A DNA stretch of 35,462 nt from contig CAYVAZ010000012.1 in assembly GCA_964449065.1 (NCBI GenBank), forward strand, positions 1-35,462, written 5' to 3'. A program made the position numbers and the translations under genes. Numbering within the stretch: the stretch's first letter is position 1; each line of letters opens with the position of its first letter. Below are positions 2,910 to 31,279 of the stretch, piece by piece. The stretch is from an uncultured bacterium (GTDB lineage Bacteria > Hinthialibacterota > Hinthialibacteria > Hinthialibacterales > Hinthialibacteraceae). The notes under the pieces are model-generated. The model searched no databases. It was given only the letters and a program-made list of their open reading frames with translations, and was not told where the DNA came from.

Positions 2910-4016
2910 CTAAGCATCATTTTGCAGTTTGCTCCACTCTTCGAACGTATTGCAGTTTTTCCAGCAGCGCTTTAATGATTCGGGGATTGCAATTTTCTCG
3001 ACCTTTGCATGAGTCAGCAGCGGTTGAACAGAAGAATTCCCGGAGCGCACCCCGGATTCGATTGTTGACAGAAATTGCGGTTCATATAGCGCTCCCAATG
3101 GATGCGAAAGAGCATTCTCTTCAGGAACAATTGCCCACCGGCCTAGTTTTCGCTGTGATACCAGCCAGCGAATAGCATCTGCATGAAACAAGGGCATATC
3201 ACACGCAAGAAACAACCATGAAACATGGGGGTTCCACCGCATTGCCGCGAGCATCCCGGCAAGAGGGCCTTGGCAATTTGGAACATCCGGTATTCGAGTA
3301 ATCGCGTTGTTTGTTATACGATGATTTCCTAACAATACGGTAGGCAGATTTTCCCGCGCGCATTGTTTGATTAGATGATCCATCAGGGTTGAATCGCCCC
3401 ATTGCATACGATGTTTGGGTTGTCCCATGCGCTTGCTTTGTCCCCCAAATAAGATGCCGGCGTACAGTTTTCTTTCGGCCCATTTCTTTGAGAAACAATC
3501 GATGATCAAGTGTGCCGCGTAAGACAGCCGGTCATTCTTCCAAGGTATCCTTTGAATAATATTATGAGTAGACGCAGGAGGATTGCCTTTGGAAGGATGT
3601 TCCAGCCATAGTTTCGGCCAGGGAGAATCTTTGTGTCCTTCAATCAGGATACAATCTACATTTCTTGAGAGGGATTGTATCCAATCCCCTAGAATAAAAT
3701 GGTCCTTTTTATGAAAACGAATAAAGCCATGTTTTTGATCATGTGCCATTACATAAGACGCTCCTGCTGAAAAAAAACGGCCGCTGTCTTTATGCGGATG
3801 GTCGAACTCCAGCCGGTGCGCATCATGCTTCATGACAGCGACGGTTATGTTTTTTTTGTGAAGAATCGGAATAAGATTTTCGATAAGCCAGGTTTTCCCG
3901 GAGCCGCTCCAGCCGCATATAGATAAGACCAGCGGTTCATCTTGTTCAGTCGGCACCCCCCAATCGATTGCTGTTGGGTTCCTTGTTGAATGGCATCCGG
4001 ACGCGCGAGAAGACAT
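2910..4016 (-). CDS. mobB-mobA: MobB-MobA fusion (molybdopterin-guanine dinucleotide biosynthesis)
   Basis: N-half has the MobB P-loop GWSGSGKT, KHDAH and LIEGHK. C-half has MobA motifs GILFGGQSKRMG, GPLAG, LACDMP, HPLGALY and NCNTFEE. Confidence 0.92.
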   Translation of the reverse strand: MSSRASGCHSTRNPTAIDWGVPTEQDEPLVLSICGWSGSGKTWLIENLIPILHKKNITVAVMKHDAHRLEFDHPHKDSGRFFSAGASYVMAHDQKHGFIRFHKKDHFILGDWIQSLSRNVDCILIEGHKDSPWPKLWLEHPSKGNPPASTHNIIQRIPWKNDRLSYAAHLIIDCFSKKWAERKLYAGILFGGQSKRMGQPKHRMQWGDSTLMDHLIKQCARENLPTVLLGNHRITNNAITRIPDVPNCQGPLAGMLAAMRWNPHVSWLFLACDMPLFHADAIRWLVSQRKLGRWAIVPEENALSHPLGALYEPQFLSTIESGVRSGNSSVQPLLTHAKVEKIAIPESLKRCWKNCNTFEEWSKLQNDA

Positions 4017-4454
4017 ATCAACCGCCTATTGCTGTCGTTATTTCTCTGGATTCAAACGAGGTATAATCGGCAATTAGGGTCGTCGTTGATTTTTTTGACA
4101 TGGCGGTTTCTATCCCGGCTCACGTTTTCCGCAAGCCGCCTGATTTAGAAGTAGAGTTACAACGCGCTTGTTGTGTGCGATTGAACCGTCTCGGTAAATA
4201 GGTCTATCGATTTTACTCGTTTTATTTATGAACCGTGGTGCTCCATGAGGCATACAAAAGTAAAATACCGGCGCCCCATACATTTTTTCTGATTGATTAA
4301 TATAATACCAACAATCCCCCGTTTTAAAATGGTTTGTACCGGATATGCTTCCAGGCAATCGGGTTTCGGTTGTTCTGACGTTTGGACGTGTAGTATCGTT
4401 CACTTGGACACTTGCCCGAACCAAAATTCACTTACATTTTTTTTTTGACGAGGC

Positions 4455-4733
4455 TTAATCAAAGAGATCGTCGATGTTGAACCATACGTATTAACCCTGC
4501 GATTTAATACCGGTGAGATCGTGAAAGTGGATTTGCAGGACAAATTACAAGAATGGTCGCAGACGCCGGAAAGCAAGTTTAAGCCATTGTAAGATGAGAA
4601 ATATTTCAAAACCGTTCGAATCGATCAAGAAGCCGAAACGATTTTTTGGGATAACGGAATAGACCTTTGCCCGGATGTTCTTTATGAGATGGGAGAGGTT
4701 GTAGAAAAAAATCGGCAAACAACCTCAGTATAA
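4455..4733 (+). pseudogene. DUF2442-family (antitoxin-like) pseudogene
   Basis: Manual translation LIKEIVDVEPYVLTLRFNTGEIVKVDL...KFKPL*DEKYFKTVRIDQEAETIFWDNGIDLCPDVLYEMG matches the DUF2442 pattern (L.L.F..G, W.NG.D.CPD.LY). In-frame TAA at 4590-4592 and no start codon. Confidence 0.8.
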
Positions 4734-4750
4734 TTCTTACAAAATGATTC

Positions 4751-5110
4751 TTACAAATATTCCCGGTAATCGGTATGGAAAGCGGCGGCGATTTTCTTGG
4801 CGAGTTCCTTGCCGATGGGGCGTTTGTTGTTTTCCATTTCGGAGATGTGATGCTGCTTTACCCCTAATTTATCTGCTAGTGTTTTTTGGGTAAGGTTGGC
4901 ATTCTTCCGGTGTACCTTCAGCGTAATGCCGGGTAGATATTCCCTATCGATATATTCGTTTAAGGCTTCCATTGCGTTAACCGGTTTGGCTGTTTCTTCA
5001 AACTGAAAGCGTTTTGCTGTCTGCAAGAAGTTATCTTTTTGTTCTTTTGGCCCATATAAGACTACTTTAACGTTGTTATCAGTAGGGCGCTTTTTCGTGA
5101 GTACCGGCAT
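4751..5110 (-). CDS. higA: XRE-family HTH antitoxin (HigA-like)
   Basis: C-terminal HTH_3 LTQKTLADKLGVKQHHISEMENNKRPIG; overlaps the 3' end of the upstream toxin gene by 32 nt. Confidence 0.82.
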   Translation of the reverse strand: MPVLTKKRPTDNNVKVVLYGPKEQKDNFLQTAKRFQFEETAKPVNAMEALNEYIDREYLPGITLKVHRKNANLTQKTLADKLGVKQHHISEMENNKRPIGKELAKKIAAAFHTDYREYL

Positions 5111-5369
5111 AGATAATCTCCACTAAACGAACTTCGTTTTCTATCACTTTCCAAACGGCAACATAAGTGGGCTTGCCCTTATGGAGATGGCAGTGATGCG
5201 TTTTGTTATCCAACTTAGAATAGTTTTTCCACTCACCTCTAACCGGTCCTCTATACGTTATATCCCGAACCAGAACCGCAAGCCTTTCCCGGATAGCATG
5301 CGGCAATTTGCGAAGTGATTTATGGACATTTGGACTGAATGTCACCGTCCATTCAATTCCTTTTGCCAT
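5079..5369 (-). CDS. higB: RelE/HigB-superfamily type II toxin
   Basis: 96 aa, basic; WTVTFSPNVHKSLRKLP N-terminus and VEIIYAGTHE C-terminus; toxin-first order with an XRE antitoxin. Confidence 0.8.
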   Translation of the reverse strand: MAKGIEWTVTFSPNVHKSLRKLPHAIRERLAVLVRDITYRGPVRGEWKNYSKLDNKTHHCHLHKGKPTYVAVWKVIENEVRLVEIIYAGTHEKAPY

Positions 5370-5375
5370 AGTGAT

Positions 5376-5403
5376 ATCATACCATTCAGTGGTATAATTT
5401 CAA
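5376..5403 (-). promoter_or_regulatory. Sigma70 promoter with operator palindrome for the higBA-like operon
   Basis: Minus strand TTGAAA-16 nt-TATGAT with a TGn extension, ending 6 nt before the ATG at 5369. Palindrome ATACCA-N5-TGGTAT (5379-5395) covers the spacer and overlaps the -10. Confidence 0.7.
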
Positions 5404-5502
5404 CCGGATATTTTTAGGGTTATTTTCAGTTTGTTATGTCGTGGACATAATATATTTCGCGGACAGCCTCAACCCAACAAACCCACTGCCTGAAAAAGTC
5501 GA

Positions 5503-5539
5503 TTGTCTCTTCAATCCGTTGTGCTATATTGAGTCAATA
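5503..5539 (+). promoter_or_regulatory. Putative vapBC promoter and operator
   Basis: TTGTCT(5503)-16 nt-TATATT(5525) with TGn extension; perfect palindrome TATTGA-G-TCAATA at 5527-5539. Confidence 0.5.
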
Positions 5540-5563
5540 ACACCAAATGCATTCGAGGCCATT

Positions 5564-5854
5564 ATGAACATCACACTCACACCGGAAATAGAAGAAGCGC
5601 TGGCCGAAAAAGCCAGCCAAGCGGGGGTTGCGCCGGAAGAATTGGCGTTGGATATCTTGCGGAAGCAGGTTGCGCCGCAGTTGGATGAAGAGAAACCTGT
5701 GAATAGCGGTAGGACAATGTATGATCGCTTTAAAGATCACATTGGAGTGATCAGTTATGGCAAACTCTCGGAAGATGGTACTCCACTTTCGATAAATTGC
5801 GGTAAAAAATTTGCTGAAGGTATGATGGAAAAATATAAACAAGGCAAATTATGA
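5564..5854 (+). CDS. Antitoxin, VapB-like (RHH-type N-terminus)
   Basis: Start moved from 5441 to ATG 5564 (GAGG RBS); MNITLTPEIEEALAEKASQAGVAPEELALDILRK; ATGA overlap with the PIN gene. Confidence 0.75.
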   Translation: MNITLTPEIEEALAEKASQAGVAPEELALDILRKQVAPQLDEEKPVNSGRTMYDRFKDHIGVISYGKLSEDGTPLSINCGKKFAEGMMEKYKQGKL

Positions 5855-6261
5855 TTCTCATCGATACCGGCCCTTTAATTGCATTATTGGACAATAGGGA
5901 TTTATACCACGAACAATGCTTAGAACTGTTTAATCAAAGGCCTGATCAAAATGCTATTACTACCTGGCCATGTTTTACAGAAACAATGTAATTCCTTAGT
6001 GAAGTAGGGGGATATCATTTTCGTTTAAAACTTTGGAAATTGTACTTTGATGGATTACTCAAACTGCATAATTTATCCCCAAATGAAATCAACCGAATGG
6101 CAGTTTTGATGGAAAAGTATCATGACACTCCAATGGATTTAGCCGATGCGTCCTTGGTGGCGATGGCGGAGCGGTTTTTCTTTAAGCAAATATTTGCGCT
6201 GGATAGTGATTTCAATATCTACCGGTTGGTAGATGGCAACGCGTTGGAAATTGTTCCATAA
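5851..6261 (+). pseudogene. vapC: VapC PIN-domain toxin with premature stop
   Basis: MILIDTGPLIALLD...TTWPCFTETM*FL...MDLADASLVAMAE...IFALDSDFNIYR. PIN acidic motifs are present; single in-frame TAA at 5989-5991. The track shows only the 3' fragment 6040-6261. Confidence 0.88.
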
Positions 6262-6272
6262 GTTGTGGCTGA

Positions 6273-6857
6273 TTATGAATACTTCGTTTTTGTTCCGAAT
6301 ATATTTGAAACAGAAATGGAGAAATCCGGGAAGGCTAGCGGGGTGATGGCGTCTTGATTTTTATGCGTTTTAACTTCTTGATACGTTTTTCCATTGGAAA
6401 AGCGAAAGGTTTGTGTTGTGTTGGAATTCAAATCCACAATCCAAAGGTCACTGATTTGTGATTTTGCGTATAGCGGAACTTTTATGGTTTTGTCATAAGT
6501 AAGGGAAGTATCCGCTACTTCGATGACCAGCAGTGCATCTTCATCCGACGGTCTTTTGGATTCGTAACAGTCTTCCAGGTATTTCAGCAAAACGATATCC
6601 GGTTCGGGTTCATTGTGGTTGTTGACGATCAATGGATCTTGCACACTGATGAGGGTTTGGTTGTTTTGGACGAGAGATGAAAACAGTTTAATTAAGCGTT
6701 TTACACATGCAGTGTGGCGCAATCCGATGGGAGACATGGATACGATTTTTCCCTCTATGAGTTCAACCCGGTCATCCTCATGTAAAATACCGGATTCACC
6801 CATACGGTGATATTCGTCAATTGTAAATTGTCTTTGTGTCAAAACTGATGTAACCAT
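6273..6857 (-). CDS. Uma2-family (DUF820) PD-(D/E)XK endonuclease
   Basis: FTIDEYHRM, RVELIEG, EPEPDIVLL, LVIEVADTSL, K.PLYA, WIVDL motifs. Confidence 0.93.
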   Translation of the reverse strand: MVTSVLTQRQFTIDEYHRMGESGILHEDDRVELIEGKIVSMSPIGLRHTACVKRLIKLFSSLVQNNQTLISVQDPLIVNNHNEPEPDIVLLKYLEDCYESKRPSDEDALLVIEVADTSLTYDKTIKVPLYAKSQISDLWIVDLNSNTTQTFRFSNGKTYQEVKTHKNQDAITPLAFPDFSISVSNIFGTKTKYS

Positions 6858-6952
6858 TTCTCTGCCTACATTGTGGATGTATTCAAATCATACCATAAAA
6901 ATGAGAATGTGGAGAGATTTACGTTTTTAATAATGGCAGACAAAAATAAAAA

Positions 6953-6986
6953 GATGGGGTTAGTGAAGGGTCTTAATCCATCCTAC
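6953..6986 (-). repeat. Degenerate GTAG-type REP palindrome
   Basis: Minus strand GTAG-GATGGATTAAG-N8-CTAACCCCATC, starting 5 nt after the stop codon at 6992. Confidence 0.55.
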
Positions 6987-6991
6987 AATCC

Positions 6992-7522
6992 TCAATTCTC
7001 GTAGTGATACCCCTGCTCAAAGGCTTCCAGGTTTTTGTCGACTGTTTTTGGGGGGACGGTCTCGGCGATGGCTTTTTGAATGGCTTCCTTTGATATGCTG
7101 GTGCATTGTTTGGACAGGCATCCCAGCATCACCATATTGAGCATCATGCGGCCGCCCAGTTCTTCTGCCATGCGTGTGCAGGGAATCCCGACGCGTTTGA
7201 CGGTTTCGTTGCTGTGGGGTTCAACCAAATCGCTTTCGTAAATCAACACGCCGTCACCGGCCAAATCGCGGTAATACTTTTCTTCGCTTGCTTTTGACAT
7301 GGCCAGCAGATAATCCAGATGGGTAACATAGGGATAGGTAATCGGTTCATCGGAAATTAAAAGCTGCGCGCTGCATGATCCCCCGCGTGCTTCGGGGCCG
7401 TAACTGCGGCTCATGCACGCATGTTGGTTGTCAAAAATAGCCCCGGCCTTGCCGAGGATGGTTCCGGCCATGATAACGCCTTGGCCGCCGAAACCGGCTA
7501 CGCGAATTTGGGTTAAGCTCAT
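6992..7522 (-). CDS. korC: 2-oxoacid:ferredoxin oxidoreductase gamma subunit
   Basis: Start reset to ATG 7522 (ATGA overlap with the beta gene); IRVAGFGGQG, SYGPEARGG, NMVMLG. Confidence 0.92.
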   Translation of the reverse strand: MSLTQIRVAGFGGQGVIMAGTILGKAGAIFDNQHACMSRSYGPEARGGSCSAQLLISDEPITYPYVTHLDYLLAMSKASEEKYYRDLAGDGVLIYESDLVEPHSNETVKRVGIPCTRMAEELGGRMMLNMVMLGCLSKQCTSISKEAIQKAIAETVPPKTVDKNLEAFEQGYHYEN

Positions 7523-8445
7523 ACCACGGCTCCTTGATACGGCACATATTGTTCGCCTAAACTTTGCTGCAATTGCGCTTCCATCGACTCTAAAAACGTG
7601 GGTTGTTCGCGGTCGATGAATTTGCCAATGATAATTTCTTGTCCGGGAATAATATGCGCGTCTTTGGGGTCGATACCGTTTTTGATTTTGCACACGTCTT
7701 TGAACATCTTCATTTCTTCCAACCCGGTCCGGAAATGATTGCGCCGCCCGTAAAGTGTGGGGCAGGGAGAGAGTACTTCGACGAACGAAAATCCCTTTTT
7801 GCTCATCATCTCTTTAAAGGTTCTTTGCAAGGATTTCGCGTGGTAGGTCGTCCAGCGCGCGATGTAGGTACCGCCGAAGGCATCGACCAAATGCGAGAGG
7901 TTGAATTGCTCTAAGAAAAAGCCGTAGGGTGTGGTGGATGCAATGGTCCCGCGCGGTGTGGTGGGGGCGGCTTGGCCTCCGGTCATGGAGTAGACGAAGT
8001 TGTTGATGCAGACCACTTTGATATCAAAGTTGCGGCGCGCGGCGTGCAGCAGGTGGTTGCCTCCAATGGCGGAAAGATCGCCGTCTCCACTGATGACGAC
8101 TACGTTTAATTTGGGGTTCGCCAGTTTCAAACCGATGGCGAAAGGGATGGCGCGGCCATGGGTGGTGTGAAATGAATCGAGATTGAGGTACCCCGCCACA
8201 CGGCCGCTGCAGCCGATGCCGGAGACCACGCTGATGTTGTTTTTCTCGATATCGGAATCAATCAATGCGCGGATGAAGACGTTGACCGCCGTTCCAATAC
8301 CGCAGCCCGCGCACCATATATGCGGTATGCGGTCCATACGCAGATACGATTCAAGTTGCTTGGAAAACGCATCCTCTTTTTCAATTACGGGATTTCCCAA
8401 ATGTTCTAATTTTTCTTCCGCTGCTTCTAACGACTTTCCAGACAC
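7519..8445 (-). CDS. korB: 2-oxoacid:ferredoxin oxidoreductase beta (TPP-binding) subunit
   Basis: PHIWCAGCG, SGIGCS, HTTHGRA, GDGD...GGNH...NN TPP motif, SPCPT. Confidence 0.94.
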   Translation of the reverse strand: MSGKSLEAAEEKLEHLGNPVIEKEDAFSKQLESYLRMDRIPHIWCAGCGIGTAVNVFIRALIDSDIEKNNISVVSGIGCSGRVAGYLNLDSFHTTHGRAIPFAIGLKLANPKLNVVVISGDGDLSAIGGNHLLHAARRNFDIKVVCINNFVYSMTGGQAAPTTPRGTIASTTPYGFFLEQFNLSHLVDAFGGTYIARWTTYHAKSLQRTFKEMMSKKGFSFVEVLSPCPTLYGRRNHFRTGLEEMKMFKDVCKIKNGIDPKDAHIIPGQEIIIGKFIDREQPTFLESMEAQLQQSLGEQYVPYQGAVV

Positions 8446-9602
8446 GATTCAGCCTCCATAATAGCGTTTACGATCTCTTCGGGACGGTGTACGGCACCGC
8501 CGGCGTTCAATACGGGAATGACCCGGCAGGCGCCATGCGCATGCCGTTCGACTTCCCGCAGCATTTGTCCCATATTCATTTCAACCATAACGATGGCTCG
8601 ACATTTCTTTGCGAGTTCCTGAACACGTTGTTCCGGGAACGGCCACGCGGTTTTGAGCCGCATCATGCCAATGCTGATCCCGCGGGATTTTGCGGAGTGC
8701 ATAGCCTGCATAGCCACCCGTGAACTGATGCCGTACGAGACCACAGCTATATCGGCGTCATCTAAATCGATCTCTTCCACTTCGATGATCTCGTGAGTGG
8801 ATAGGCGGATTTTATCCATCAAGCGCTGAACCAAGTCTTGGTGAACATCGGCTTGCATGGCAGGGTAGCCGCGTTCATCATGCGTTAAGCCGGTAACGTG
8901 GATGTTGTGGCCTAACCCGGCGCGCGTTATTTTTGGAACCATGCCTTCCATTTCGCTGTAGGGGTAGAATTCGCCGGGTTTGCGGCCGGTATAATGGCGC
9001 GGTTCGAGTTTGATATCATCCGCGGGAGGGATCACCACTTTTTCCATCATGTGGCCGATGCATTCATCCATCATCAGAAATACGGGTGTGCGGTATTTCT
9101 CGGCCAAATTGAATGCCTGGATGGTCATATCAAAGCATTCTTGCGGCGAATTGGGACATAGCGCGATGGTTTCGAAGTCGCCATGCGAACCCCAGCGAAC
9201 CTGCATCATATCCTGCTGGCCGGGAAGAGTGGGCAATCCGGTAGAGGGGCCGCCGCGCTGTACGTTAACGAACACACAGGGTGTTTCGGTCATGATGGCG
9301 TAACCGATGTGCTCCATCATGAGTGAAAACCCGGGGCCGGATGTCACGGTCATGGTTTTGGCGCCCCCCCATGCCGCACCGAGAATGGTGATGGAGGAGG
9401 CGATTTCGTCTTCCATTTGGATGAACATGCCGCCGATTTTGGGGAACCGTCTGGCAAGCAGTTCAACGACTTCGGTGGAGGGGGTGATGGGGTAGCCGGC
9501 ACAAAACCGGCATCCTGCCGCAATGGCGCCTTCGGCACAGGCGCTGTCTCCGTCTAGGAAGTGCGTGCCTGCGCGGACGGCTTTGGAGTCCGCTGATAAC
9601 AT
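8427..9602 (-). CDS. korA: 2-oxoacid:ferredoxin oxidoreductase alpha subunit (no fused gamma domain)
   Basis: GYPITP, QMEDEIAS, TSGPGFSLM, QRGGPSTGLPT, VEMNMGQ; start reset to ATG 9602 with GAGGT RBS. 2-oxoglutarate specificity is inferred, not shown. Confidence 0.94.
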   Translation of the reverse strand: MLSADSKAVRAGTHFLDGDSACAEGAIAAGCRFCAGYPITPSTEVVELLARRFPKIGGMFIQMEDEIASSITILGAAWGGAKTMTVTSGPGFSLMMEHIGYAIMTETPCVFVNVQRGGPSTGLPTLPGQQDMMQVRWGSHGDFETIALCPNSPQECFDMTIQAFNLAEKYRTPVFLMMDECIGHMMEKVVIPPADDIKLEPRHYTGRKPGEFYPYSEMEGMVPKITRAGLGHNIHVTGLTHDERGYPAMQADVHQDLVQRLMDKIRLSTHEIIEVEEIDLDDADIAVVSYGISSRVAMQAMHSAKSRGISIGMMRLKTAWPFPEQRVQELAKKCRAIVMVEMNMGQMLREVERHAHGACRVIPVLNAGGAVHRPEEIVNAIMEAESCLESR

Positions 9603-23905: not shown

Positions 23906-24991
23906 TTACGGCTTCACATATTCCACATCCGGATGATGCGAATACCACGCGAACTGGAAGGCATACATCACGCCGGCATCTTCAGGCAGGGAGGATTCAT
24001 CAAACACAACCGCGCACGCTTCCGGGAAATCGGTATACCGGATCACAACTTCATGCCCCCCAATCTGTGTGCGCCATTTGTTTTCATCTTTCTTGTTTTC
24101 CACAACTACCGGATACGGAACCGGGTACAAATCATCATCCCACTGCAATATCATCATCCCGGTTTTATTTTTATATTGATCTTCCGGCGGCATGGGTATG
24201 ACCTCAAACTGGAGCGTATCCATACTATGAAACCGCCCATATGGGTCCGCCTGATACTGCCGCATCTTAGAGGTGTTGGGCTTTATCACTTTCGAATCGG
24301 GATACCGCTCCTTCCAATCATCCCACCGCGACATTTCACACGGCAGCGTCTTGAGCGTGGTTCCCTTCTTCGCCTCCGGCCCGCTCACCGCCCGAAACTG
24401 CAACTGGCTCCACAAACTTTCTTGCGCGGGGTCTTCACGCCGGTCAAACATCAACAGGGTTGAGTTATACAATAACCCGCTCTCGGCAAACTCCAGCGTT
24501 TTTCCGTTCACCCGCCGGTCAAATACAACCACGCTGTCGCCAAAGGGGCTGTACGTTACCGCAACCGGAACCCCGCCCACTTCATCGTTAATCACTTCAT
24601 GCCACTGCAAAATGCGGATGGGATACGCGCGCGCATCCCCATTGATACGCAACCCAACCACCCGGTCGCGTGAAACTTGATACTTTCCCCGTATCTCTTC
24701 ATTGATCTCATCTACTGCGGCAATGGGGATGAATTCCGGATGGTCGAAATTCTCCAAGCCGTCTTTCGGCAGGCCGCTTACCGCGATGTTTTCTTTGGGA
24801 ACCTTGAGGTTGGCTAAATCAAACCCGTACGATTCAATGTGCACGCCATCCCCGATGGTCTTCTCTTTTTCCCGGTTCATAACGTTCATGATGTTGATAA
24901 TGATGCCAAAGGAGCTCAGTATCAATACACTGATAATTACAGGGATGATGTAAGACTTTCGCTGTGGAGGTGTCGGGACTGGAGCGTTCAT
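23906..24991 (-). CDS. DUF3179-domain membrane-anchored protein
   Basis: N-terminal TM; ARAYPIRILQWHEVIND, SGLLYNS.LLMFDR, SLWSQL...AVSGP, WKERYPDSKV, FAWYSHHP. Confidence 0.88.
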   Translation of the reverse strand: MNAPVPTPPQRKSYIIPVIISVLILSSFGIIINIMNVMNREKEKTIGDGVHIESYGFDLANLKVPKENIAVSGLPKDGLENFDHPEFIPIAAVDEINEEIRGKYQVSRDRVVGLRINGDARAYPIRILQWHEVINDEVGGVPVAVTYSPFGDSVVVFDRRVNGKTLEFAESGLLYNSTLLMFDRREDPAQESLWSQLQFRAVSGPEAKKGTTLKTLPCEMSRWDDWKERYPDSKVIKPNTSKMRQYQADPYGRFHSMDTLQFEVIPMPPEDQYKNKTGMMILQWDDDLYPVPYPVVVENKKDENKWRTQIGGHEVVIRYTDFPEACAVVFDESSLPEDAGVMYAFQFAWYSHHPDVEYVKP

Positions 24992-24997
24992 AATAAT

Positions 24998-25984
24998 TTA
25001 GTAGCGTGGAAATAACGGATGAAGGCTAACTTCCTGAACGGCATCGTTCGCTTGAGTGAGGGTATGCATAATCTGTTCCGGCTGTTCGCTTTTGTCGATC
25101 ACCATCAACCCAAGCAAAAACGGCAGGTAGATCAAACTGGCCAAAAACAATTTCCGCGCGTTCGCATTGTTCTTGGTTTGCATGAGGATCAATCCCTGCC
25201 ACAAAAAGTAAGCTCCTAAAATGACGCTGCCAATGGCATAAATAATCCCGGTATAACCAAAGAGAGTAAGGATCAACGCCAATGGAATCATCGCCACCAA
25301 ATAAAGTACAATCACCCGGCACGTCAATCCACCGGATTGATCCACAATCGGCAGCATCCGAAAACCGCCCCGCTCATAGTCATCTCGGTACAGCCACGCC
25401 AGCGCCATAAAGTGCGGAATCTGCCAGGCAAACAAGATCGCGCCCAGCAGCCATGCGCCCGCTCCCAACCCACCGGCCGCCCCTGCCCAGCCGATCATCG
25501 GCGGTACGGCGCCGCAGATCGCGCCTACCAATGTATTCATGGTGGAGAGTGGTTTCATGGGCGTATAAACCAATACGTAAAGCAGCACATTCAACAAGGC
25601 CAACCCCGCGGCAATGTCATTCACGTATAAAGATAAAATAAGGGTTCCTAAGATGGAGGCAGCGATGCCAAACCCGAACGCATACTGAGGAGACATATTT
25701 CCGGAAGGCAGCGGACGGTTTCGCGTACGGATCATTTTCGCGTCCCGGTTTACTTCAAACCATTGATTGAGGGCGTTCGCGCCTGCCGCGGCAAACCCTG
25801 TCCCGATCAAGGTCCAAAACAAGGCGGGCAATTGAAACAACACATCCGGAGAACCCAGGATGAATCCCACAAAAGTCGTCGTTAATACTAGCAAAGAAAG
25901 CCTTGCTTTCGATAACTCTAAATGAAGGCGATAGATTGACGGTGTTGCAGACAAAGATTTCGCGGCGTTGAATTCTACGGACAT
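24998..25984 (-). CDS. cyoE: Protoheme IX farnesyltransferase (heme O synthase)
   Basis: NALNQWFE..RDAKMIRTRNRPLPSG, YTPMK, GAVPPMIGW, WQIPHFMALAW.YRDDY..GG..MLP. Confidence 0.96.
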   Translation of the reverse strand: MSVEFNAAKSLSATPSIYRLHLELSKARLSLLVLTTTFVGFILGSPDVLFQLPALFWTLIGTGFAAAGANALNQWFEVNRDAKMIRTRNRPLPSGNMSPQYAFGFGIAASILGTLILSLYVNDIAAGLALLNVLLYVLVYTPMKPLSTMNTLVGAICGAVPPMIGWAGAAGGLGAGAWLLGAILFAWQIPHFMALAWLYRDDYERGGFRMLPIVDQSGGLTCRVIVLYLVAMIPLALILTLFGYTGIIYAIGSVILGAYFLWQGLILMQTKNNANARKLFLASLIYLPFLLGLMVIDKSEQPEQIMHTLTQANDAVQEVSLHPLFPRY

Positions 25985-26179: not shown

Positions 26180-27181
26180 ATGAATCGCTCTTTCTTTGCG
26201 CAAGCGGATTTCGATGGAACGTGGAAAGAAATATTGGATATATTCTTGCCGGATTTTCTCCGTCTATTCTTTCCGGAAGTATATAAGGATATTGACTGGA
26301 ATCAGGGATTTGAATCGCTGGAACAAGAACTGCACCGCATTGTGCAGGAGGCTGAAGTGGGGCAGCGGTACGTAGACAAGTTGATTAAAGTGTACCGAAA
26401 AAATGGAGAAGAAGCTTGGGTATGCATTCATATTGAAATTCAATCACAGCCGGACCATAAATTATCCGAAAGGATGTATATCTACAACAGTTCCATTTTT
26501 CTGAGATACAAGCAACCCGTGATGAGTTTGGCCGTATTGGGCGATGGAGACCCGAATTGGCGCCCGGAATCATTTTCGTATACACTGTGGGGAAGCCAAG
26601 TTCGGTTGACGTTTCCAACGGTGAAGCTGCTGGATTTTCAAGACCGAATCGAGGAGTTTGTTCAAACCCAAAACCCGTTCGCGTTTTTCGTCGAAGCGCA
26701 TTTGAAAACCATAGAATCCAAATCAAACATGCAGGAGCGCTTTAACTGCAAGGAAGAAATAACCAAACGGATGTTGGAACAAGGTCTGCCGGAACGGGAC
26801 GTGTATCATTTATTTAAATTTATTGACGCACTGATGACGTTGCCGCGTGAGTTAGAACAAGAGTTTATCAAAAGTATCCATCTTTATCAGGAGGAAAAGA
26901 ACATGCCGATCATCGCACCTTTTGAACAACTGGCCATGGAAAAAGGGATGGAAAAAGGGATGGAGAAAGGTAATTTACAAGCAACCCGATCCATCTTGCT
27001 GGAAATTCTCGCGGAGCGATTCGGCGAATTGCCGGCCTCTACGGTTCATTCCATCAACGCGGTTGAGGATGTCTCTGCTTTGCGGGCCATTTTAAAACAA
27101 GCATTTAAAGCCAAGTCGCTGGATACCATTCATCCATTCATTGTTGAGGCCACAAAAAATACAAGCAGCCAAGATAATTGA
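26180..27181 (+). CDS. Rpn/YhgA-like PD-(D/E)XK nuclease (recombination-promoting nuclease / putative transposase family)
   Basis: DGTWKEIL..F...FL.LFFP, YVDKLIKV, IHIEIQSQ, ERMYIYN, (MEKG)3 repeat and C-terminal RFGELP helical domain. Confidence 0.85.
   Translation: MNRSFFAQADFDGTWKEILDIFLPDFLRLFFPEVYKDIDWNQGFESLEQELHRIVQEAEVGQRYVDKLIKVYRKNGEEAWVCIHIEIQSQPDHKLSERMYIYNSSIFLRYKQPVMSLAVLGDGDPNWRPESFSYTLWGSQVRLTFPTVKLLDFQDRIEEFVQTQNPFAFFVEAHLKTIESKSNMQERFNCKEEITKRMLEQGLPERDVYHLFKFIDALMTLPRELEQEFIKSIHLYQEEKNMPIIAPFEQLAMEKGMEKGMEKGNLQATRSILLEILAERFGELPASTVHSINAVEDVSALRAILKQAFKAKSLDTIHPFIVEATKNTSSQDN
26903..27181 (+). CDS. Putative internally initiated small Rpn protein (RpnS-like antitoxin, 92 aa)
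   Basis: AGGAGG at 26889-26894, 8 nt before an in-frame ATG at 26903, directly ahead of the MEKG repeats. Confidence 0.6.
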   Translation: MPIIAPFEQLAMEKGMEKGMEKGNLQATRSILLEILAERFGELPASTVHSINAVEDVSALRAILKQAFKAKSLDTIHPFIVEATKNTSSQDN

Positions 27182-27211: not shown

Positions 27212-28315
27212 ATGCCCATGTCATCTCCACATAACCGAAGGCAAGCCTTTCGAGGAAACTTTAAATCCTTTCTATCAGAGTTTTCCGATCTAATGGATTT
27301 AAACGAACCGCTCGCCTTTTTAGGGTTCGACCGTTCCTACGTCAAACTTAAACGCGAGGCAATGGCAACGGTGTTTGAAGTGATCCTGCCAAACTATGAA
27401 TCCGTGCAAAAGCGCCGAGCCGCAACCATGCTGCTCGATGAAATCGACCGCGTTGAATCGATCTTTACGATATGGAAAGGCCGATCCGAACTCAAAATTC
27501 TCAACGAAACCGCCTGGAAAGAACCGGTCAAAGTCTGTGAGGATGTATTCGAACTTCTTGCCACCGCAAAGAAAATTCACGAATGGACGAACGGCGCATA
27601 CGATCTAACAAGCACACCACTGGCGAAATGCTGGGGCTTCTTTTACCGCGAGGGTAGAATGCCGCGAAAAGAAGAAATCGGAAATGCCATGAAAAGAATT
27701 GGAATGCAGCATGTCATTTTAGACAAAAACAACCAAACCGTATTTTTCGAAAAACGCGGTCTCGAACTTACCCCTGCCAGTATCGGGAAAGGCTTCGCCC
27801 TCGATAAAGCCGCCGCACTCGCGAAATCAACGGACTGCAAGACCTACATGCTGAACGCCGGCGGAAGCAGTATCTACGCTTCCGGCCACCCGGCTTGGAA
27901 AGACCGTTGGGCGTTCAATATTCGCAGTCCCTTCAACCGCAAAGAATCCATCGCGCAGTTTCGCGTCAAAGACAAAGGGTTTTCATCCTCCGGCTGCGAT
28001 GAACAACACTTTGAACACCAAGGCAAAACCTATGGCCACATAATCGATCCCCGCAGCGGCTATCCCGCTTCTGAACTGGTCAGTGTGAACGTTACAGCTC
28101 CCACAGCCGCCGAAGCCGAGGCACTTTCTACGGCATTTTACGTGCTAGGGGTTGAGCAAACGTTAAAATACTGTGAAAATCACCCTGAAATAGGAGTTTT
28201 GCTTATCTTACCTAAAGGCAATTCTAAGCAATCTTCGCTTATTATTAGCAATCTCAATGATCAGGAAGTGGAGGTCAAGGACGAATCGTGTCAACTTCAA
28301 CGGTATATGAACTAA
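27212..28315 (+). CDS. apbE: FAD:protein FMN transferase (ApbE family)
   Basis: AMATVFEV, SELKILN, TNGAYDLT, SIGKGFALD, GHIIDPRSGYP, AEALSTAF. Confidence 0.92.
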   Translation: MPMSSPHNRRQAFRGNFKSFLSEFSDLMDLNEPLAFLGFDRSYVKLKREAMATVFEVILPNYESVQKRRAATMLLDEIDRVESIFTIWKGRSELKILNETAWKEPVKVCEDVFELLATAKKIHEWTNGAYDLTSTPLAKCWGFFYREGRMPRKEEIGNAMKRIGMQHVILDKNNQTVFFEKRGLELTPASIGKGFALDKAAALAKSTDCKTYMLNAGGSSIYASGHPAWKDRWAFNIRSPFNRKESIAQFRVKDKGFSSSGCDEQHFEHQGKTYGHIIDPRSGYPASELVSVNVTAPTAAEAEALSTAFYVLGVEQTLKYCENHPEIGVLLILPKGNSKQSSLIISNLNDQEVEVKDESCQLQRYMN

Positions 28316-28938
28316 CTTCAGTACAAAAGTTTTTCTTCGCCATCCTGCGGATGGCGATCGGCTGGCATTTTTTGCGGGAAGGATATGTCAAACTCTCGCA
28401 AACTGACTGGTCTGCTTATGGGTACCTTGCCAACTCATGGGGACCTTTCGCACCGTATTTTAAGCAGATGGCAGAAGACCCTCAAATGCTGCAACTGGCT
28501 AATACAGGGATGCCTTGGGCATTAACTCTGGTAGGGCTTGGCCTGATGTTCGGTGTTTTTACCCGTCTGTCATGCCTTGGTGGAATCGTTTTATTGGCCT
28601 CCTTTTATCTTTCAGCGCCACCGTGGGGAGAGCCGCAAATCCCCTTGCCGTTTGTACAAGATACGGAATTCAGCTGGGGCTATTATGAAATGATGCTGAG
28701 TAACGCCACTTGGGCCGGCAACATCATGATCGGCTCGGAAGGCAACTATCAAATTGTCAACAAAAACCTGTTGGAACTCTTAGCTTTGGTCGCTTTACTT
28801 ACGACTAATAGTGGAAAGTTCTGCGGCTTTGACGGTCTGATTGGTTACTACATTTTCGGTTTCGGACGTTCAAAACAAGCAAAAGAACAATCCAGCGAAA
28901 CAGATTCGACACCGGAACTTCAACCCGCAACCGAGTAA
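28288..28938 (+). CDS. DoxX/DoxD-family membrane protein
   Basis: LRMAIGWHFLREGYVKL, WSAYGYL..S.GPF, GLGLMFGVFTR, IVNKNLLE, GFDG; GTG start overlapping the end of apbE. Confidence 0.88.
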   Translation: MSTSTVYELTSVQKFFFAILRMAIGWHFLREGYVKLSQTDWSAYGYLANSWGPFAPYFKQMAEDPQMLQLANTGMPWALTLVGLGLMFGVFTRLSCLGGIVLLASFYLSAPPWGEPQIPLPFVQDTEFSWGYYEMMLSNATWAGNIMIGSEGNYQIVNKNLLELLALVALLTTNSGKFCGFDGLIGYYIFGFGRSKQAKEQSSETDSTPELQPATE

Positions 28939-28986
28939 AAAAAATCTAAAATACAGAGAAAGAAATCGGGGAAAGGAAACAAGATC

Positions 28987-30414
28987 ATGCCAACATTAAC
29001 AGAAGGACAAAAGGCCATAGGCCGCCGTAACTTTTTGAAAGCCGCTGCCACCCTGCCGGTCGCGGCCGGGTTTGGAGCCACCGCGTTAAACGCAGGTCCT
29101 GTCAAAGCGGGGATTGTCGGAACCGGGATGGAAGGCCGTGTACTCATCGATTCCATCGATCCCAAATACATCAACTTGGTTGGATTGTGCGACATTCGGC
29201 CGGACAATTTGGCGGTAGGTGAATTTTGGGTCAAAACCAAAAACAAATTAAATGACAATCCAAAAACGTATCTTAAATACGAAGACATGCTTGCCGATCC
29301 GGAACTTGAAGCCGTCTTGATCGCGACACCCCTGTTCCTGCACGGCCCAATGACTTTACAAGCTTTGGATGCCGGCAAACACGTTTTTGTTGAAAAAACC
29401 ATGGCGTACTCGGTTGATGAATGTGTGCAAATGGTTGAAAAAGCCAGACAGAAAAACCTCAACCTGCAAGTCGGCCACATGAAGTTCTACAACCCGCTTT
29501 ACTGGGACACCTACCGCATGTTTAAAGAAGGCATGTTGGGCAATGTTTACCATGCCCGTATGGCATGGCACCGTAACACAGACTGGAACTATTGGATTCA
29601 TGTCCAACAACAACACTTCGACGCCTTAATGGATTTTGATCCGACTCCGTATGAGTATTCCGATCACGAAGAATTGGTGAACTGGCGCTGGTACAACCGC
29701 ACCTCACAAGGGATGTGGTCCGAACTTGCAAGCCACCAATTGGCTATCAGCAATTGGTTCTTCGGTGAAAACGGTAAAGATGTTCTTCCCACCGCAGTAC
29801 AAGGCCACCAAACCCACTCCAAATCCGTCTACGATTTGGAAGAAAAATACCGCGGATGGGATCCCGAAAAGTTGGAAATGAATAAAGTGTATGAAGGCGA
29901 TCCGCGCGACAGCAACGATCACATCTACGCGATTTACGAATATCCGGAAGGCCGTACCGTCACCTACTCCGCCATCCAAAGTAACGTGTACGATAAATCC
30001 TACGAAATGTTCATGGGCACGTGGGGTACGGTCATCCTGCAAAGCGAAGTCGAGTCTTACCTCTTCTGGGAACCGGGATGGGATGAGACCAAAGCCGCGG
30101 AAGAAGCCAAAGCCATCAAAGAAAATAACAGAACCGAAGTCGCCGTGGAAGAAGAAGGCGAAGAAGGTGAAGCAGCCATGGGCCACGCGACAGCCGGTGC
30201 CGCGACAGGCGGCGGCGGCGATACCGGAATGTCGATCTACCAGCCTTACACTTGGGAACTCGAAGGCTTTGCCCATACCATTCGTTCCGGTGCACCCAAC
30301 TTGTGCGATGGCGTCCGCGCCGGCAAAACCGCACTTGCAATCTACGCCGGAAAAGAAGCCGCCACCAAACACCAACGCGTCGAAATCGAAGACCCCTTTG
30401 CCAAGTTCGTATAA
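28987..30414 (+). CDS. Tat-signal Gfo/Idh/MocA-family oxidoreductase
   Basis: GRRNFLKAAA, GIVGTGMEG Rossmann motif, IATPLFLH, GKHVFVEKTMA, NWRWY, ELASHQL. Confidence 0.93.
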   Translation: MPTLTEGQKAIGRRNFLKAAATLPVAAGFGATALNAGPVKAGIVGTGMEGRVLIDSIDPKYINLVGLCDIRPDNLAVGEFWVKTKNKLNDNPKTYLKYEDMLADPELEAVLIATPLFLHGPMTLQALDAGKHVFVEKTMAYSVDECVQMVEKARQKNLNLQVGHMKFYNPLYWDTYRMFKEGMLGNVYHARMAWHRNTDWNYWIHVQQQHFDALMDFDPTPYEYSDHEELVNWRWYNRTSQGMWSELASHQLAISNWFFGENGKDVLPTAVQGHQTHSKSVYDLEEKYRGWDPEKLEMNKVYEGDPRDSNDHIYAIYEYPEGRTVTYSAIQSNVYDKSYEMFMGTWGTVILQSEVESYLFWEPGWDETKAAEEAKAIKENNRTEVAVEEEGEEGEAAMGHATAGAATGGGGDTGMSIYQPYTWELEGFAHTIRSGAPNLCDGVRAGKTALAIYAGKEAATKHQRVEIEDPFAKFV

Positions 30415-30439
30415 GCGGCAATCGTAAAGAATAGCCTTG

Positions 30440-30477
30440 AAAAGGGATAAGGTAATCAATCGCCTTATCCCTTTTTT
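30440..30477 (+). terminator. Intrinsic terminator (possibly bidirectional)
   Basis: Perfect stem AAAAGGGATAAGG-N10-CCTTATCCCTTTT plus T run, 25 nt after the stop codon. Confidence 0.85.
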
Positions 30478-30781: not shown

Positions 30782-31279
30782 TTAAAACACAGGGGGGTCA
30801 CTCGGCGGTTCTAGTTTTACGGAAGACGGGTCTTTCACAAAGCGCCAGCGGCTGCGGGGAAACATAACACGGTCCACACCGATCCCCCCGCTTCCAACAA
30901 GAAATAACGTAATACACCCACCCATTAACACTAAATTATACTCAAACCCGCTGTTTTGCAGAAAAAAGCCGTTTTGACCGTGGACAAAATATATGGCGCC
31001 GGCCATAACCGCGGCAAGCAAGAATGAACATTCACGGGTAAACCACCCCAAAATCAAGGCGGCACCACCAAAAAATTCGACCAGAGCAACAAACCACGCG
31101 TTTAATGTTGGATAAAATATCCCCATCGATTCAAAACTTTCAATCGTACCTTCGATCCCTCCACCGCCGAACATCCCCAATAACTTTTGCGAACCGTGCG
31201 CCACAAAGACGATTCCTATGCAAAGCCGCAAAATCAGCAATGCAACCCCATAATACGAACCCATATGTTTTTCCAGCAT
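30782..31279 (-). CDS. DoxX-family membrane protein (classical small type)
   Basis: LRLCIGIVFVAHGSQKL.G.FGG.G, EFFGG...ILG.FTR, VH..NGFF...GFEY; AGGAG RBS. Confidence 0.92.
   Translation of the reverse strand: MLEKHMGSYYGVALLILRLCIGIVFVAHGSQKLLGMFGGGGIEGTIESFESMGIFYPTLNAWFVALVEFFGGAALILGWFTRECSFLLAAVMAGAIYFVHGQNGFFLQNSGFEYNLVLMGGCITLFLVGSGGIGVDRVMFPRSRWRFVKDPSSVKLEPPSDPPVF

Follow-up and report, generated by a model that had tools for sequence, protein, structure and literature searches.

The stretch of DNA analysed here (the window: 35,462 nucleotides (nt), contig CAYVAZ010000012.1 of GenBank assembly GCA_964449065.1, from an uncultured bacterium of the phylum Hinthialibacterota) carries three co-oriented genes, which encode a homologue of ApbE, the flavin adenine dinucleotide (FAD):protein flavin mononucleotide (FMN) transferase, a DoxX-like membrane protein, and a Gfo/Idh/MocA dehydrogenase with a twin-arginine translocation (Tat) signal, hereafter Gfo. 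On balance, we hold that these genes represent a conserved module in which ApbE would put FMN on a threonine within an insert of Gfo, and electrons would pass from this flavin to the DoxX-like protein and then to quinone. The reading is drawn from the recurrence of the cassette in related and distant genomes, and from the flavinylation motifs that relatives carry in the same insert. The features of the cassette are as follows (aa, amino acids).

27212-28315 (+): apbE, a homologue of the FAD:protein FMN transferase, 367 aa, without signal peptide or membrane anchor (PF02424)
27236-27241 (+): Arg9-Arg10 of ApbE (NRRQAF), a twin-arginine word with no hydrophobic region behind it (ortholog pattern and hydropathy)
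28288-28938 (+): gene of the DoxX-like four-helix membrane protein, 216 aa, GTG start (PF07681)
28987-30414 (+): gene of the Gfo/Idh/MocA NAD-type sugar dehydrogenase with a Tat signal, 475 aa (PF01408, PF22725 and PF02894)
28987-29091 (+): predicted Tat signal peptide, Gfo residues 1-35, GRRNFLK followed by AAATLPVAAGFGATALNA (read off the sequence)
30139-30234 (+): disordered insert of Gfo, residues 385-416, with the drifted flavinylation-like site AAMGHAT402AGAAT407GGGG (model and alignment)
30190-30192 (+): codon of T402
30205-30207 (+): codon of T407
30439-30476 (+): intrinsic terminator at the end of the operon (stem and T run, folding)

Conservation of the cassette

Within the phylum, 35 species genomes were sampled, and DoxX-like relatives were found in 29 of them. 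With the genome of the window excluded, they are present in every genome of the window's own family f1 (19/19) and of families f2 (2/2) and f6 (7/7), and in none of families f3-f5 (0/6). Forty of the 42 places in the phylum outside the window were classed by phmmer, leaving out G032:C11 and G012:C128 (internal stop). Trios of apbE, doxX and gfo in the window's gene order account for 22 of the 40 loci and occur in all 19 other genomes of the family as well as in both f2 genomes; one Gfo among them is cut by a contig end, and the ApbE frame of L051 is split in two. A further nine loci are doxX-gfo pairs without ApbE, second copies that all lie in genomes also having a trio. Six loci, all of f6, are overlapping apbE-doxX pairs next to glnE, the Gfo orthologues of this family being located elsewhere, mostly as tandem pairs, and the last three loci encode fusions.

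A pattern scan of species genomes yielded at least 580 loci encoding DoxX-like relatives, in soil, sediment and gut phyla, and the best 80 of these were analysed with profiles built from the proteins of the phylum. Of these best 80 (of at least 580 loci), 57 have a separate DoxX-like gene and the other 23 encode fusions; a gfo gene lies directly beside 54 of the 57, and apbE is also found within 2.5 kb on the same strand in 29 of them. By phylum, such an apbE accompanies 25/28 loci in Acidobacteriota, where the order is apbE-gfo-doxX, 2/3 in Gemmatimonadota, 2/2 in the window's own phylum and 0/22 in Bacteroidota. That distant phyla share the trio although its gene order has been shuffled speaks for a functional unit. 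The original prediction had treated the three genes as one system, and the survey bears out their conservation as a unit in the phylum (the 22 trios), in Acidobacteriota and in Gemmatimonadota.

The dehydrogenase and its insert

We take the canonical site modified by ApbE to be Dxx(s/t)gAT. In published descriptions it is given as [S/T]GA[S/T] (PMC8238504, PMC11334425). When Gfo proteins encoded beside DoxX-like genes were aligned, words of this type (VDAVTSATE, VDAVTGATA, VDAISTATS) were seen in those from Bacteroidota, Gemmatimonadota and Calditrichota, and a relaxed pattern, [DE][AGS][IVLM][STA][SGTA][AP][ST], found them in the same insert of 19/20, 2/2 and 1/1 such proteins from these phyla, respectively. 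A stricter canonical pattern matched none of the 41 Gfo homologues located elsewhere in the same loci, and 29 of the 1,977 open reading frames (ORFs) of at least 100 aa in the analysed loci. Acidobacteriota have a different word in the same place, [AV]-D-V-[RQ]-E-[ST], in 27 of 28 Gfo proteins, as does the Gfo of a second module of the window's genome, on contig C156 (GDVQET).

The window Gfo, AAMGHATAGAAT, does not match the canonical pattern: its site has drifted. The insert (residues 385-416, EGEAAMGHAT(402)AGAAT(407)GGGGDTGMS) is of low complexity, and its residues 385-406, with a predicted local distance difference test score (pLDDT) below 50, form the sole long disordered stretch of an otherwise confident AlphaFold2 (AF2) model. 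It aligns with the canonical DAVTSAT-type motifs of relatives and with AAVTHST of family f6; by this alignment, the insert is homologous to bona fide flavinylation motifs. The f6 word is an intermediate with canonical spacing, so that the series runs from the canonical D-A-V-T-S-A-T through A-A-V-T-H-S-T in f6 to A-A-M-G-H-A-T in the window. Among 30 close orthologues, 27 keep A-[FM]-x-A-H-x-[ST], with its H-x-[ST]; two have the variants AYVS and AHTAS, and the one without the word is also a copy that lacks the hydrophobic (h) region of the Tat signal. Read against the f6 form, T402 is the position that we favour as the flavinylated one, and it is preferred over T407 because the first hydroxyl is better conserved. 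An alternative alignment, of V-S-G-E-A-T with V-S-G-A-T, would put the site at the Thr before GGGG, that is, at T407. The suggestion that the oxidoreductase itself is the substrate of ApbE is therefore upheld in part: Gfo is the best candidate, with canonical motifs of relatives in the same insert and none in the Gfo homologues elsewhere, and its own motif in the window has drifted.

The same drift may be explained by decay of the flavinylation site in this lineage, which would leave the insert as a docking arm only and ApbE as an enzyme kept for another purpose. In favour of this, neither the Asp nor the G/S of the canonical word is left in the window motif, several orthologues lack the second Thr, and the ApbE frame of L051 is split. 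However, ApbE has been kept beside the module in 22 loci and forms a clade of its own, H-x-[ST] persists in nearly all close orthologues within a loop that is otherwise disordered and of low complexity, and the f6 intermediate retains the canonical spacing; hence, we regard decay as unlikely.

Gfo matches PF01408 (E 1.2e-19, 71.6 bits vs. a cut-off of 24) and both C-terminal domains, PF02894 and PF22725. Its N-terminus, GRRNFLKAAATLPVAAGFGATALNA, contains the twin-arginine word GRRNFLK and, behind it, an uncharged run of 21 residues that closes with ALNA, R13 and R14 are nearly invariant in 61 Gfo relatives, and the whole reads as a classical Tat signal, from which export is predicted. The Rossmann fold, with its GxGxxG word, starts directly after this signal. 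In the same 61 relatives G45, G47, G50 and E136 are invariant and K137 is nearly so. In a Rossmann fold, NAD is favoured over NADP by an Asp that ends the second strand, and the nearly invariant D69 in this position points to NAD. The AF2 model, built from a 61-sequence alignment (pLDDT 89.8), matched with a probability of 1.00 folds that include glucuronide 3-dehydrogenase, levoglucosan dehydrogenase and glucose-fructose oxidoreductase (GFOR), and the nearest solved sequences are DgpA and 8tdf/8tdh. In NCBIfam the window Gfo falls in no named equivalog; the BT_2158 glycoside 3-dehydrogenase model NF058561 gave 47.6 bits against a cut-off of 750. In tandem Gfo genes (L051 5081-6448 (-), L061 10332-11693 (+) and the f6 loci L157-L164) one copy has GR[RAV]xF but, where the Tat h-region would be, a charged stretch; it may be exported as a partner subunit together with the copy that bears the signal.

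ApbE, the DoxX-like protein and the surroundings of the operon

The cassette ApbE matches PF02424 over positions 1-265 of the 266 of the profile (E 1.4e-64, 218.7 bits vs. a cut-off of 25.6), and with 139 bits against a cut-off of 498 it is not an equivalog of E. coli ApbE in NCBIfam. Residues 42-339, about 300 in number, align with solved FMN transferases: in comparison with 7esa and 1vrm, HIIDP corresponds to HILDP, IGKGF to IAKGF, and Glu stands for Asp before LSTA. The His of H-x-x-D-P, the Lys of x-K-G and the acidic residue before L-S-T-A are presumably the active-site residues.

No hydrophobic stretch precedes this core. A pair of arginines is present without an h-region, and the N-terminus does not qualify as a Tat signal. 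The word RRx[FLVM][FLMV] occurs in 27 of the 29 ApbEs of the phylum that adjoin a DoxX-like gene (RR-Q-A-F in the window); behind it, median values are 0.76 for the best 12-residue hydropathy and 8 for the longest uncharged run, vs. 1.76 and 21 for the Tat signals of Gfo. An N-terminal word [NST]RRxF[FL] is kept in the window ApbE and in its orthologues in L035-L073, and the stretch behind it is charged. Neither signal peptide nor anchor was found in any cassette ApbE of the window's phylum, nor, by inspection of those rows in which the ORF starts near the core, in the cassette ApbEs of Acidobacteriota. As the cassette ApbE lacks a signal peptide, FMN is likely attached in the cytoplasm, ahead of Tat export; the extracytoplasmic setting that had been assumed for the flavinylation step is thus not borne out.

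A tree of 61 ApbEs was calculated with FastTree from the last 330-340 residues of each ORF, which drops spurious N-terminal extensions, and was midpoint-rooted, with local support values; ORFs below 250 or 270 aa were left out, as were L077 and L078, own-phylum loci that were already represented. Three groups were obtained. The first joins the Acidobacterial cassette ApbEs with the C156 ApbE of the window's genome (support 99), the second joins the DoxX-adjacent ApbEs of the phylum, including that of the window, with one Acidobacteriota trio, L153 (support 98), and the third comprises the anchored ApbEs and both Gemmatimonadota ApbEs. The Gfo of L153 is also nearer to the window's Gfo (36% vs. 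about 26% identity), and the C156 Gfo has the Acidobacterial DV[RQ]E[ST] loop, matching the ApbE grouping. The type of the Gfo loop thus tracks the ApbE group, as co-evolution of an enzyme with its client would predict, although with few independent lineages this pattern is only suggestive.

The genome assembly of the window (515 contigs, 87% complete) encodes three ApbE paralogues, in the window and on contigs C50 and C156. The C50 ApbE has a hydrophobic N-terminal anchor (best 12-residue hydropathy 3.05) and is of the ordinary, outward-facing kind, whereas the other two have no anchor. The window holds no FMN_bind match, as originally noted, and in a six-frame scan across the genome the sole match is RnfG on C240, which lies in an rnfD-G-E-A cluster and has the site SLSGAT. 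No match to DUF2271 was found in the 87% complete genome, and none to DUF3570, though the control for the latter search matched no genome either; within the trio, Pfam shows no FMN_bind, DUF2271 or DUF3570 domain. A canonical FMN_bind client elsewhere in the genome could have accounted for the cassette ApbE. Such a client exists in RnfG, but we rejected the explanation, since of the three paralogues only that of C50 is membrane-anchored and available to serve it. Across all ORFs of at least 100 aa in this genome the strict flavinylation pattern, which RnfG escapes because it has no Asp in this place, gave two hits. One, in a flagellar export cluster, was taken as chance. The other is in a secreted protein of 261 aa with the word GDGVSSAT (G000:C349, L167, 1034-1819 (+)), encoded beside a gene named by eye as an FtsX-like permease; this protein is a candidate for an ordinary client of the anchored ApbE.

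The second module of the genome, G000:C156 (L075), occupies 3921-9503 on the minus strand and encodes a Tat TIM-barrel-like protein (321 aa), a Tat Gfo/Idh/MocA protein (445 aa, with the GDVQET loop), a multihaem cytochrome c with several CxxCH words (632 aa), a four-helix membrane protein bearing His (135 aa), and a signal-less ApbE (306 aa). The cytochromes seem to take the place of the window's DoxX-like protein. With this module, a signal-less ApbE is linked to a Tat-type Gfo twice in one genome.

The DoxX-like protein matches PF07681 weakly, just above the cut-off (29.2 bits vs. 23.6), and stays below it for DoxD in both Pfam (14.3 bits vs. 22.7) and NCBIfam (21.6 vs. 300). The quinone link of DoxD/DoxA, the thiosulfate:quinone oxidoreductase, comes from the Acidianus enzyme. 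With this enzyme and the DoxX family the protein shares small size, four hydrophobic helices and, with its borderline score, the Pfam DoxX match, but it differs from them in the invariant words of its own subfamily, GWHFxxEGxxK and EGxYxxVNKNxxE, and in a long periplasmic loop; quinone binding is putative. An alignment of 17 relatives shows 33 invariant columns, among them H27, E31, K35, T92, E151, Y154, N158, K159 and N160. From the charge distribution, and with support from the architecture of the fusions, both termini are predicted to lie inside and two long loops (W-[ST]-A-x-G-Y-L, SWGPF, PPW, EGNYxxVNKN) outside. The original prediction had offered the His of GWHF as a possible haem ligand, which in a fuller form would mean that the DoxX-like protein relays single electrons to quinone through haem. 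H27 of GWHF is indeed invariant (17/17 aligned relatives); however, it is the one invariant His per protein, profile searches found no haem motif or haem family match in the DoxX-like protein, and the Gfo proteins of Bacteroidota and Acidobacteriota lack the loop His. The haem reading was consequently rejected, and we consider it very improbable.

The fusion proteins, of 500-585 aa, are encoded by three loci of the phylum and by the 23 loci already counted among L077-L156. The three loci of the phylum are:

L070, 6771-8357 (-): fusion of the DoxX-like and TIM-barrel-like domains
L071, 7980-9509 (+): fusion of the same type
L074, 1798-3327 (+): fusion of the same type

In all 23 of the best 80 loci the order is a DoxX-like domain, RR with a hydrophobic helix, and a TIM-barrel-like domain related to the Tat protein of the C156 module. 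A flavinylation motif between the helix and the barrel was found by pattern in 16 of the 23 (e.g. DGFSGAT, DAVSGAT, DTLSGAT); six of the other seven have near variants by eye, and the motif region of one is not visible. The ApbE genes beside the three fusions of the phylum group with the anchored C50 paralogue, one of them having a lipoprotein-like N-terminus. The motif in this position ties the DoxX-like membrane domain to a tethered flavin, and a link between the DoxX-like domain and a periplasmic enzyme with such a flavin thus appears to recur, either as neighbouring genes or as a fusion.

The close attachment of apbE to the DoxX-like gene would also allow the DoxX-like protein to be the client or partner of ApbE, or the two to form a membrane flavin-handling unit, with the dehydrogenase only a neighbour, or a donor without covalent flavin. 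The two genes overlap or abut in 28 of the 37 phylum loci with separate genes, the six f6 loci next to glnE retain only this pair, and the DoxX-like protein has an invariant T92 in a predicted cytoplasmic hairpin and a conserved W-[ST]-[AS]. Yet the DoxX-like protein has no conserved word resembling [S/T]GA[S/T], no non-fused form matches the pattern, the canonical motifs of relatives are found on Gfo or on the periplasmic linker of the fusions and not on the DoxX-like domain, and in Acidobacteriota gfo stands between the two genes; this arrangement therefore seems to us rather unlikely.

The layout of the operon agrees fully with the original prediction of three packed, co-oriented genes closed by a strong terminator. 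An AGGTGA word resembling a Shine-Dalgarno sequence lies upstream of apbE, which overlaps the DoxX-like gene by 28 nt, and the gap between the latter and gfo is 48 nt. The terminator has a 15-pair stem followed by a T run (-21.1 kcal/mol, z -5.5, 0/200 shuffles as stable); visible in the sequence and recovered by folding, it was not picked up at 30439-30476 by a simple consensus terminator scan. At 26180-27181 (+), 30 nt upstream of apbE, is a gene for an Rpn/YhgA-like nuclease or transposase with weak Pfam and NCBIfam matches. None of the 40 related loci has an equivalent of this gene, which suggests that it was inserted between ctaB and the trio. Divergent from the trio, at 23906-25984 (-), are a DUF3179 gene and ctaB, the heme o synthase gene (289 bits, above the cut-off); of the 40 related loci, 14 have ctaB and 10 the DUF3179 gene, which may be conserved synteny only. 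On the other side, a second, canonical DoxX gene (30782-31279 (-), 165 aa, PF07681 E 7.7e-24) converges on the operon terminator and has no counterpart in the 40 related loci.

Proposed electron route and its relation to known systems

From these results, the following mechanism may be proposed. The signal-less ApbE would use cytoplasmic FAD to attach FMN to T402, or T407, of the folded Gfo precursor, and the Tat system would export the enzyme with NAD(P) and flavin aboard. In the periplasm, the enzyme would oxidise a hydroxyl of a sugar or glycoside onto the bound NAD(P), the electrons would move from the bound NAD(P)H to the tethered flavin arm and on to the DoxX-like protein, and the latter would reduce quinone and so feed the respiratory chain. 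The originally proposed chain from sugar through NAD(P), flavin and DoxX to quinone is thus supported by comparison only, through the conserved trio and the motifs of relatives, and loses its haem step.

Several points weigh against this mechanism. The site in the window is not [S/T]GA[S/T], the Asp having been lost and His standing for a small residue, and with such drift flavinylation may have been lost in the lineage. Two candidate threonines compete, and alignments of loops are unreliable. In the six f6 loci ApbE stays with the DoxX-like protein while Gfo is elsewhere, which is a misfit to simple pairing of an enzyme with its client. The counts of loci come from related genomes that are not independent; they overstate the support and should be read as descriptive only. 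Weaker evidence of the same direction comes from the longer DoxX-like forms: none of the 12 found (11 of 503-520 aa, of the TIM-barrel fusion type, and one of 393 aa) has a Gfo or ApbE Pfam domain. Finally, we know of no precedent for a flavin on a Rossmann-type NAD enzyme.

A route without any electron chain would be offered by the relatives of Gfo, in that NAD might be used transiently, as in GH109-type glycosidases, or electrons might be swapped between two sugars in a GFOR-like manner, the synteny having another cause. GFOR and a GH109 enzyme are among the sequence or fold matches, and for BT2158 the authors proposed that an unidentified second sugar serves for re-oxidation (PMC8121099). 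Since the conserved ApbE, the flavinylation motifs of relatives, the DoxX-like partner and the sister module on C156, with a multihaem cytochrome in the place of the DoxX-like protein, would all be left without explanation, we find this improbable. With GFOR of Zymomonas and BT2158 (8tdh/8tdf) the window Gfo shares the fold, the Tat signal and a tightly bound cofactor that needs re-oxidation outside the cytoplasm, and GFOR is exported by Tat with its NADP (PMC8121099). They are, however, distant kin: over the insert the solved chains do not align, their alignment with a motif-bearing relative ending at about its residue 380, and the descriptions of them consulted here (PMC8121099) name neither a flavin nor a DoxX partner.

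The mechanism that we favour is best compared with extracytosolic electron transfer by ApbE-flavinylated proteins, which, according to the main text of Meheust et al. 2021 (PMC8238504), includes FMN_bind proteins (NqrC/RnfG), NosR, PplA, DUF2271 and DUF3570, with five membrane classes (NapH-like, MsrQ-like, PepSY-like, DsbD and NQR/RNF-like). In those systems, as here, ApbE is found beside a presumed client and a membrane component, the site (here that of relatives) is of the [S/T]GA[S/T] type, and extracytoplasmic redox chemistry is, in our proposal, linked to the membrane. The differences are that the client here would be a Rossmann-type NAD dehydrogenase and not an FMN_bind, DUF2271 or DUF3570 protein, that the DoxX-like partner is outside the five classes, and that ApbE lacks a signal peptide. 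The authors state that unidentified ApbE clients remain, and their survey kept only genes that have a signal peptide or lipidation site (PMC8238504), so that an ApbE like that of the cassette would escape it.

In Klebsiella pneumoniae, a cytoplasmic ApbE flavinylates a soluble fumarate reductase (review PMC12052999). As in the window's genome, a signal-less paralogue with a dedicated client is present next to a secreted one; the Klebsiella client stays cytoplasmic, whereas the presumed client here has a Tat signal and is predicted to be exported after modification. The fumarate reductase of Klebsiella has an FMN_bind-type domain.

In a literature search that did not extend to the gene-cluster tables of PMC8238504, which could bear on novelty, no publication was found to connect DoxX or Gfo-type dehydrogenases with ApbE or flavinylation. 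Neither the main text nor three supplementary files (5,406 characters) of that paper contain the terms Gfo, DoxX, Tat or PF01408, and PMC11334425 does not use Gfo, MocA or Rossmann. It is conceivable, albeit at somewhat less than even chances, that the DoxX-like protein is a sixth class of membrane conduit for flavinylated proteins, that a signal-less ApbE acts in the cytoplasm on a Rossmann-type NAD dehydrogenase at a drifted, His-containing site before Tat export, and that this provides a general route for the re-oxidation of NAD(P) locked into periplasmic sugar dehydrogenases.

Tat-exported Gfo/Idh/MocA enzymes leave the cytoplasm with a tightly bound NAD(P), which has to be re-oxidised outside it. 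If our reading is true, a flavin held covalently on a flexible arm and a DoxX-like partner on the quinone side would connect the oxidation of sugars outside the cytoplasm directly to the respiratory chain. For the biology of ApbE, this would bring a client with a new fold and a new partner in the membrane, and would mean that flavinylation can precede Tat export, while the poorly understood DoxX family would gain a concrete job. What the window adds is the drifted site with its His, the Rossmann fold straight after the Tat signal, the clade of RR-tagged, signal-less ApbEs and the cytochrome-bearing sister module; with a site that has drifted alongside an ApbE clade of its own, the lineage would offer a natural test of ApbE specificity.

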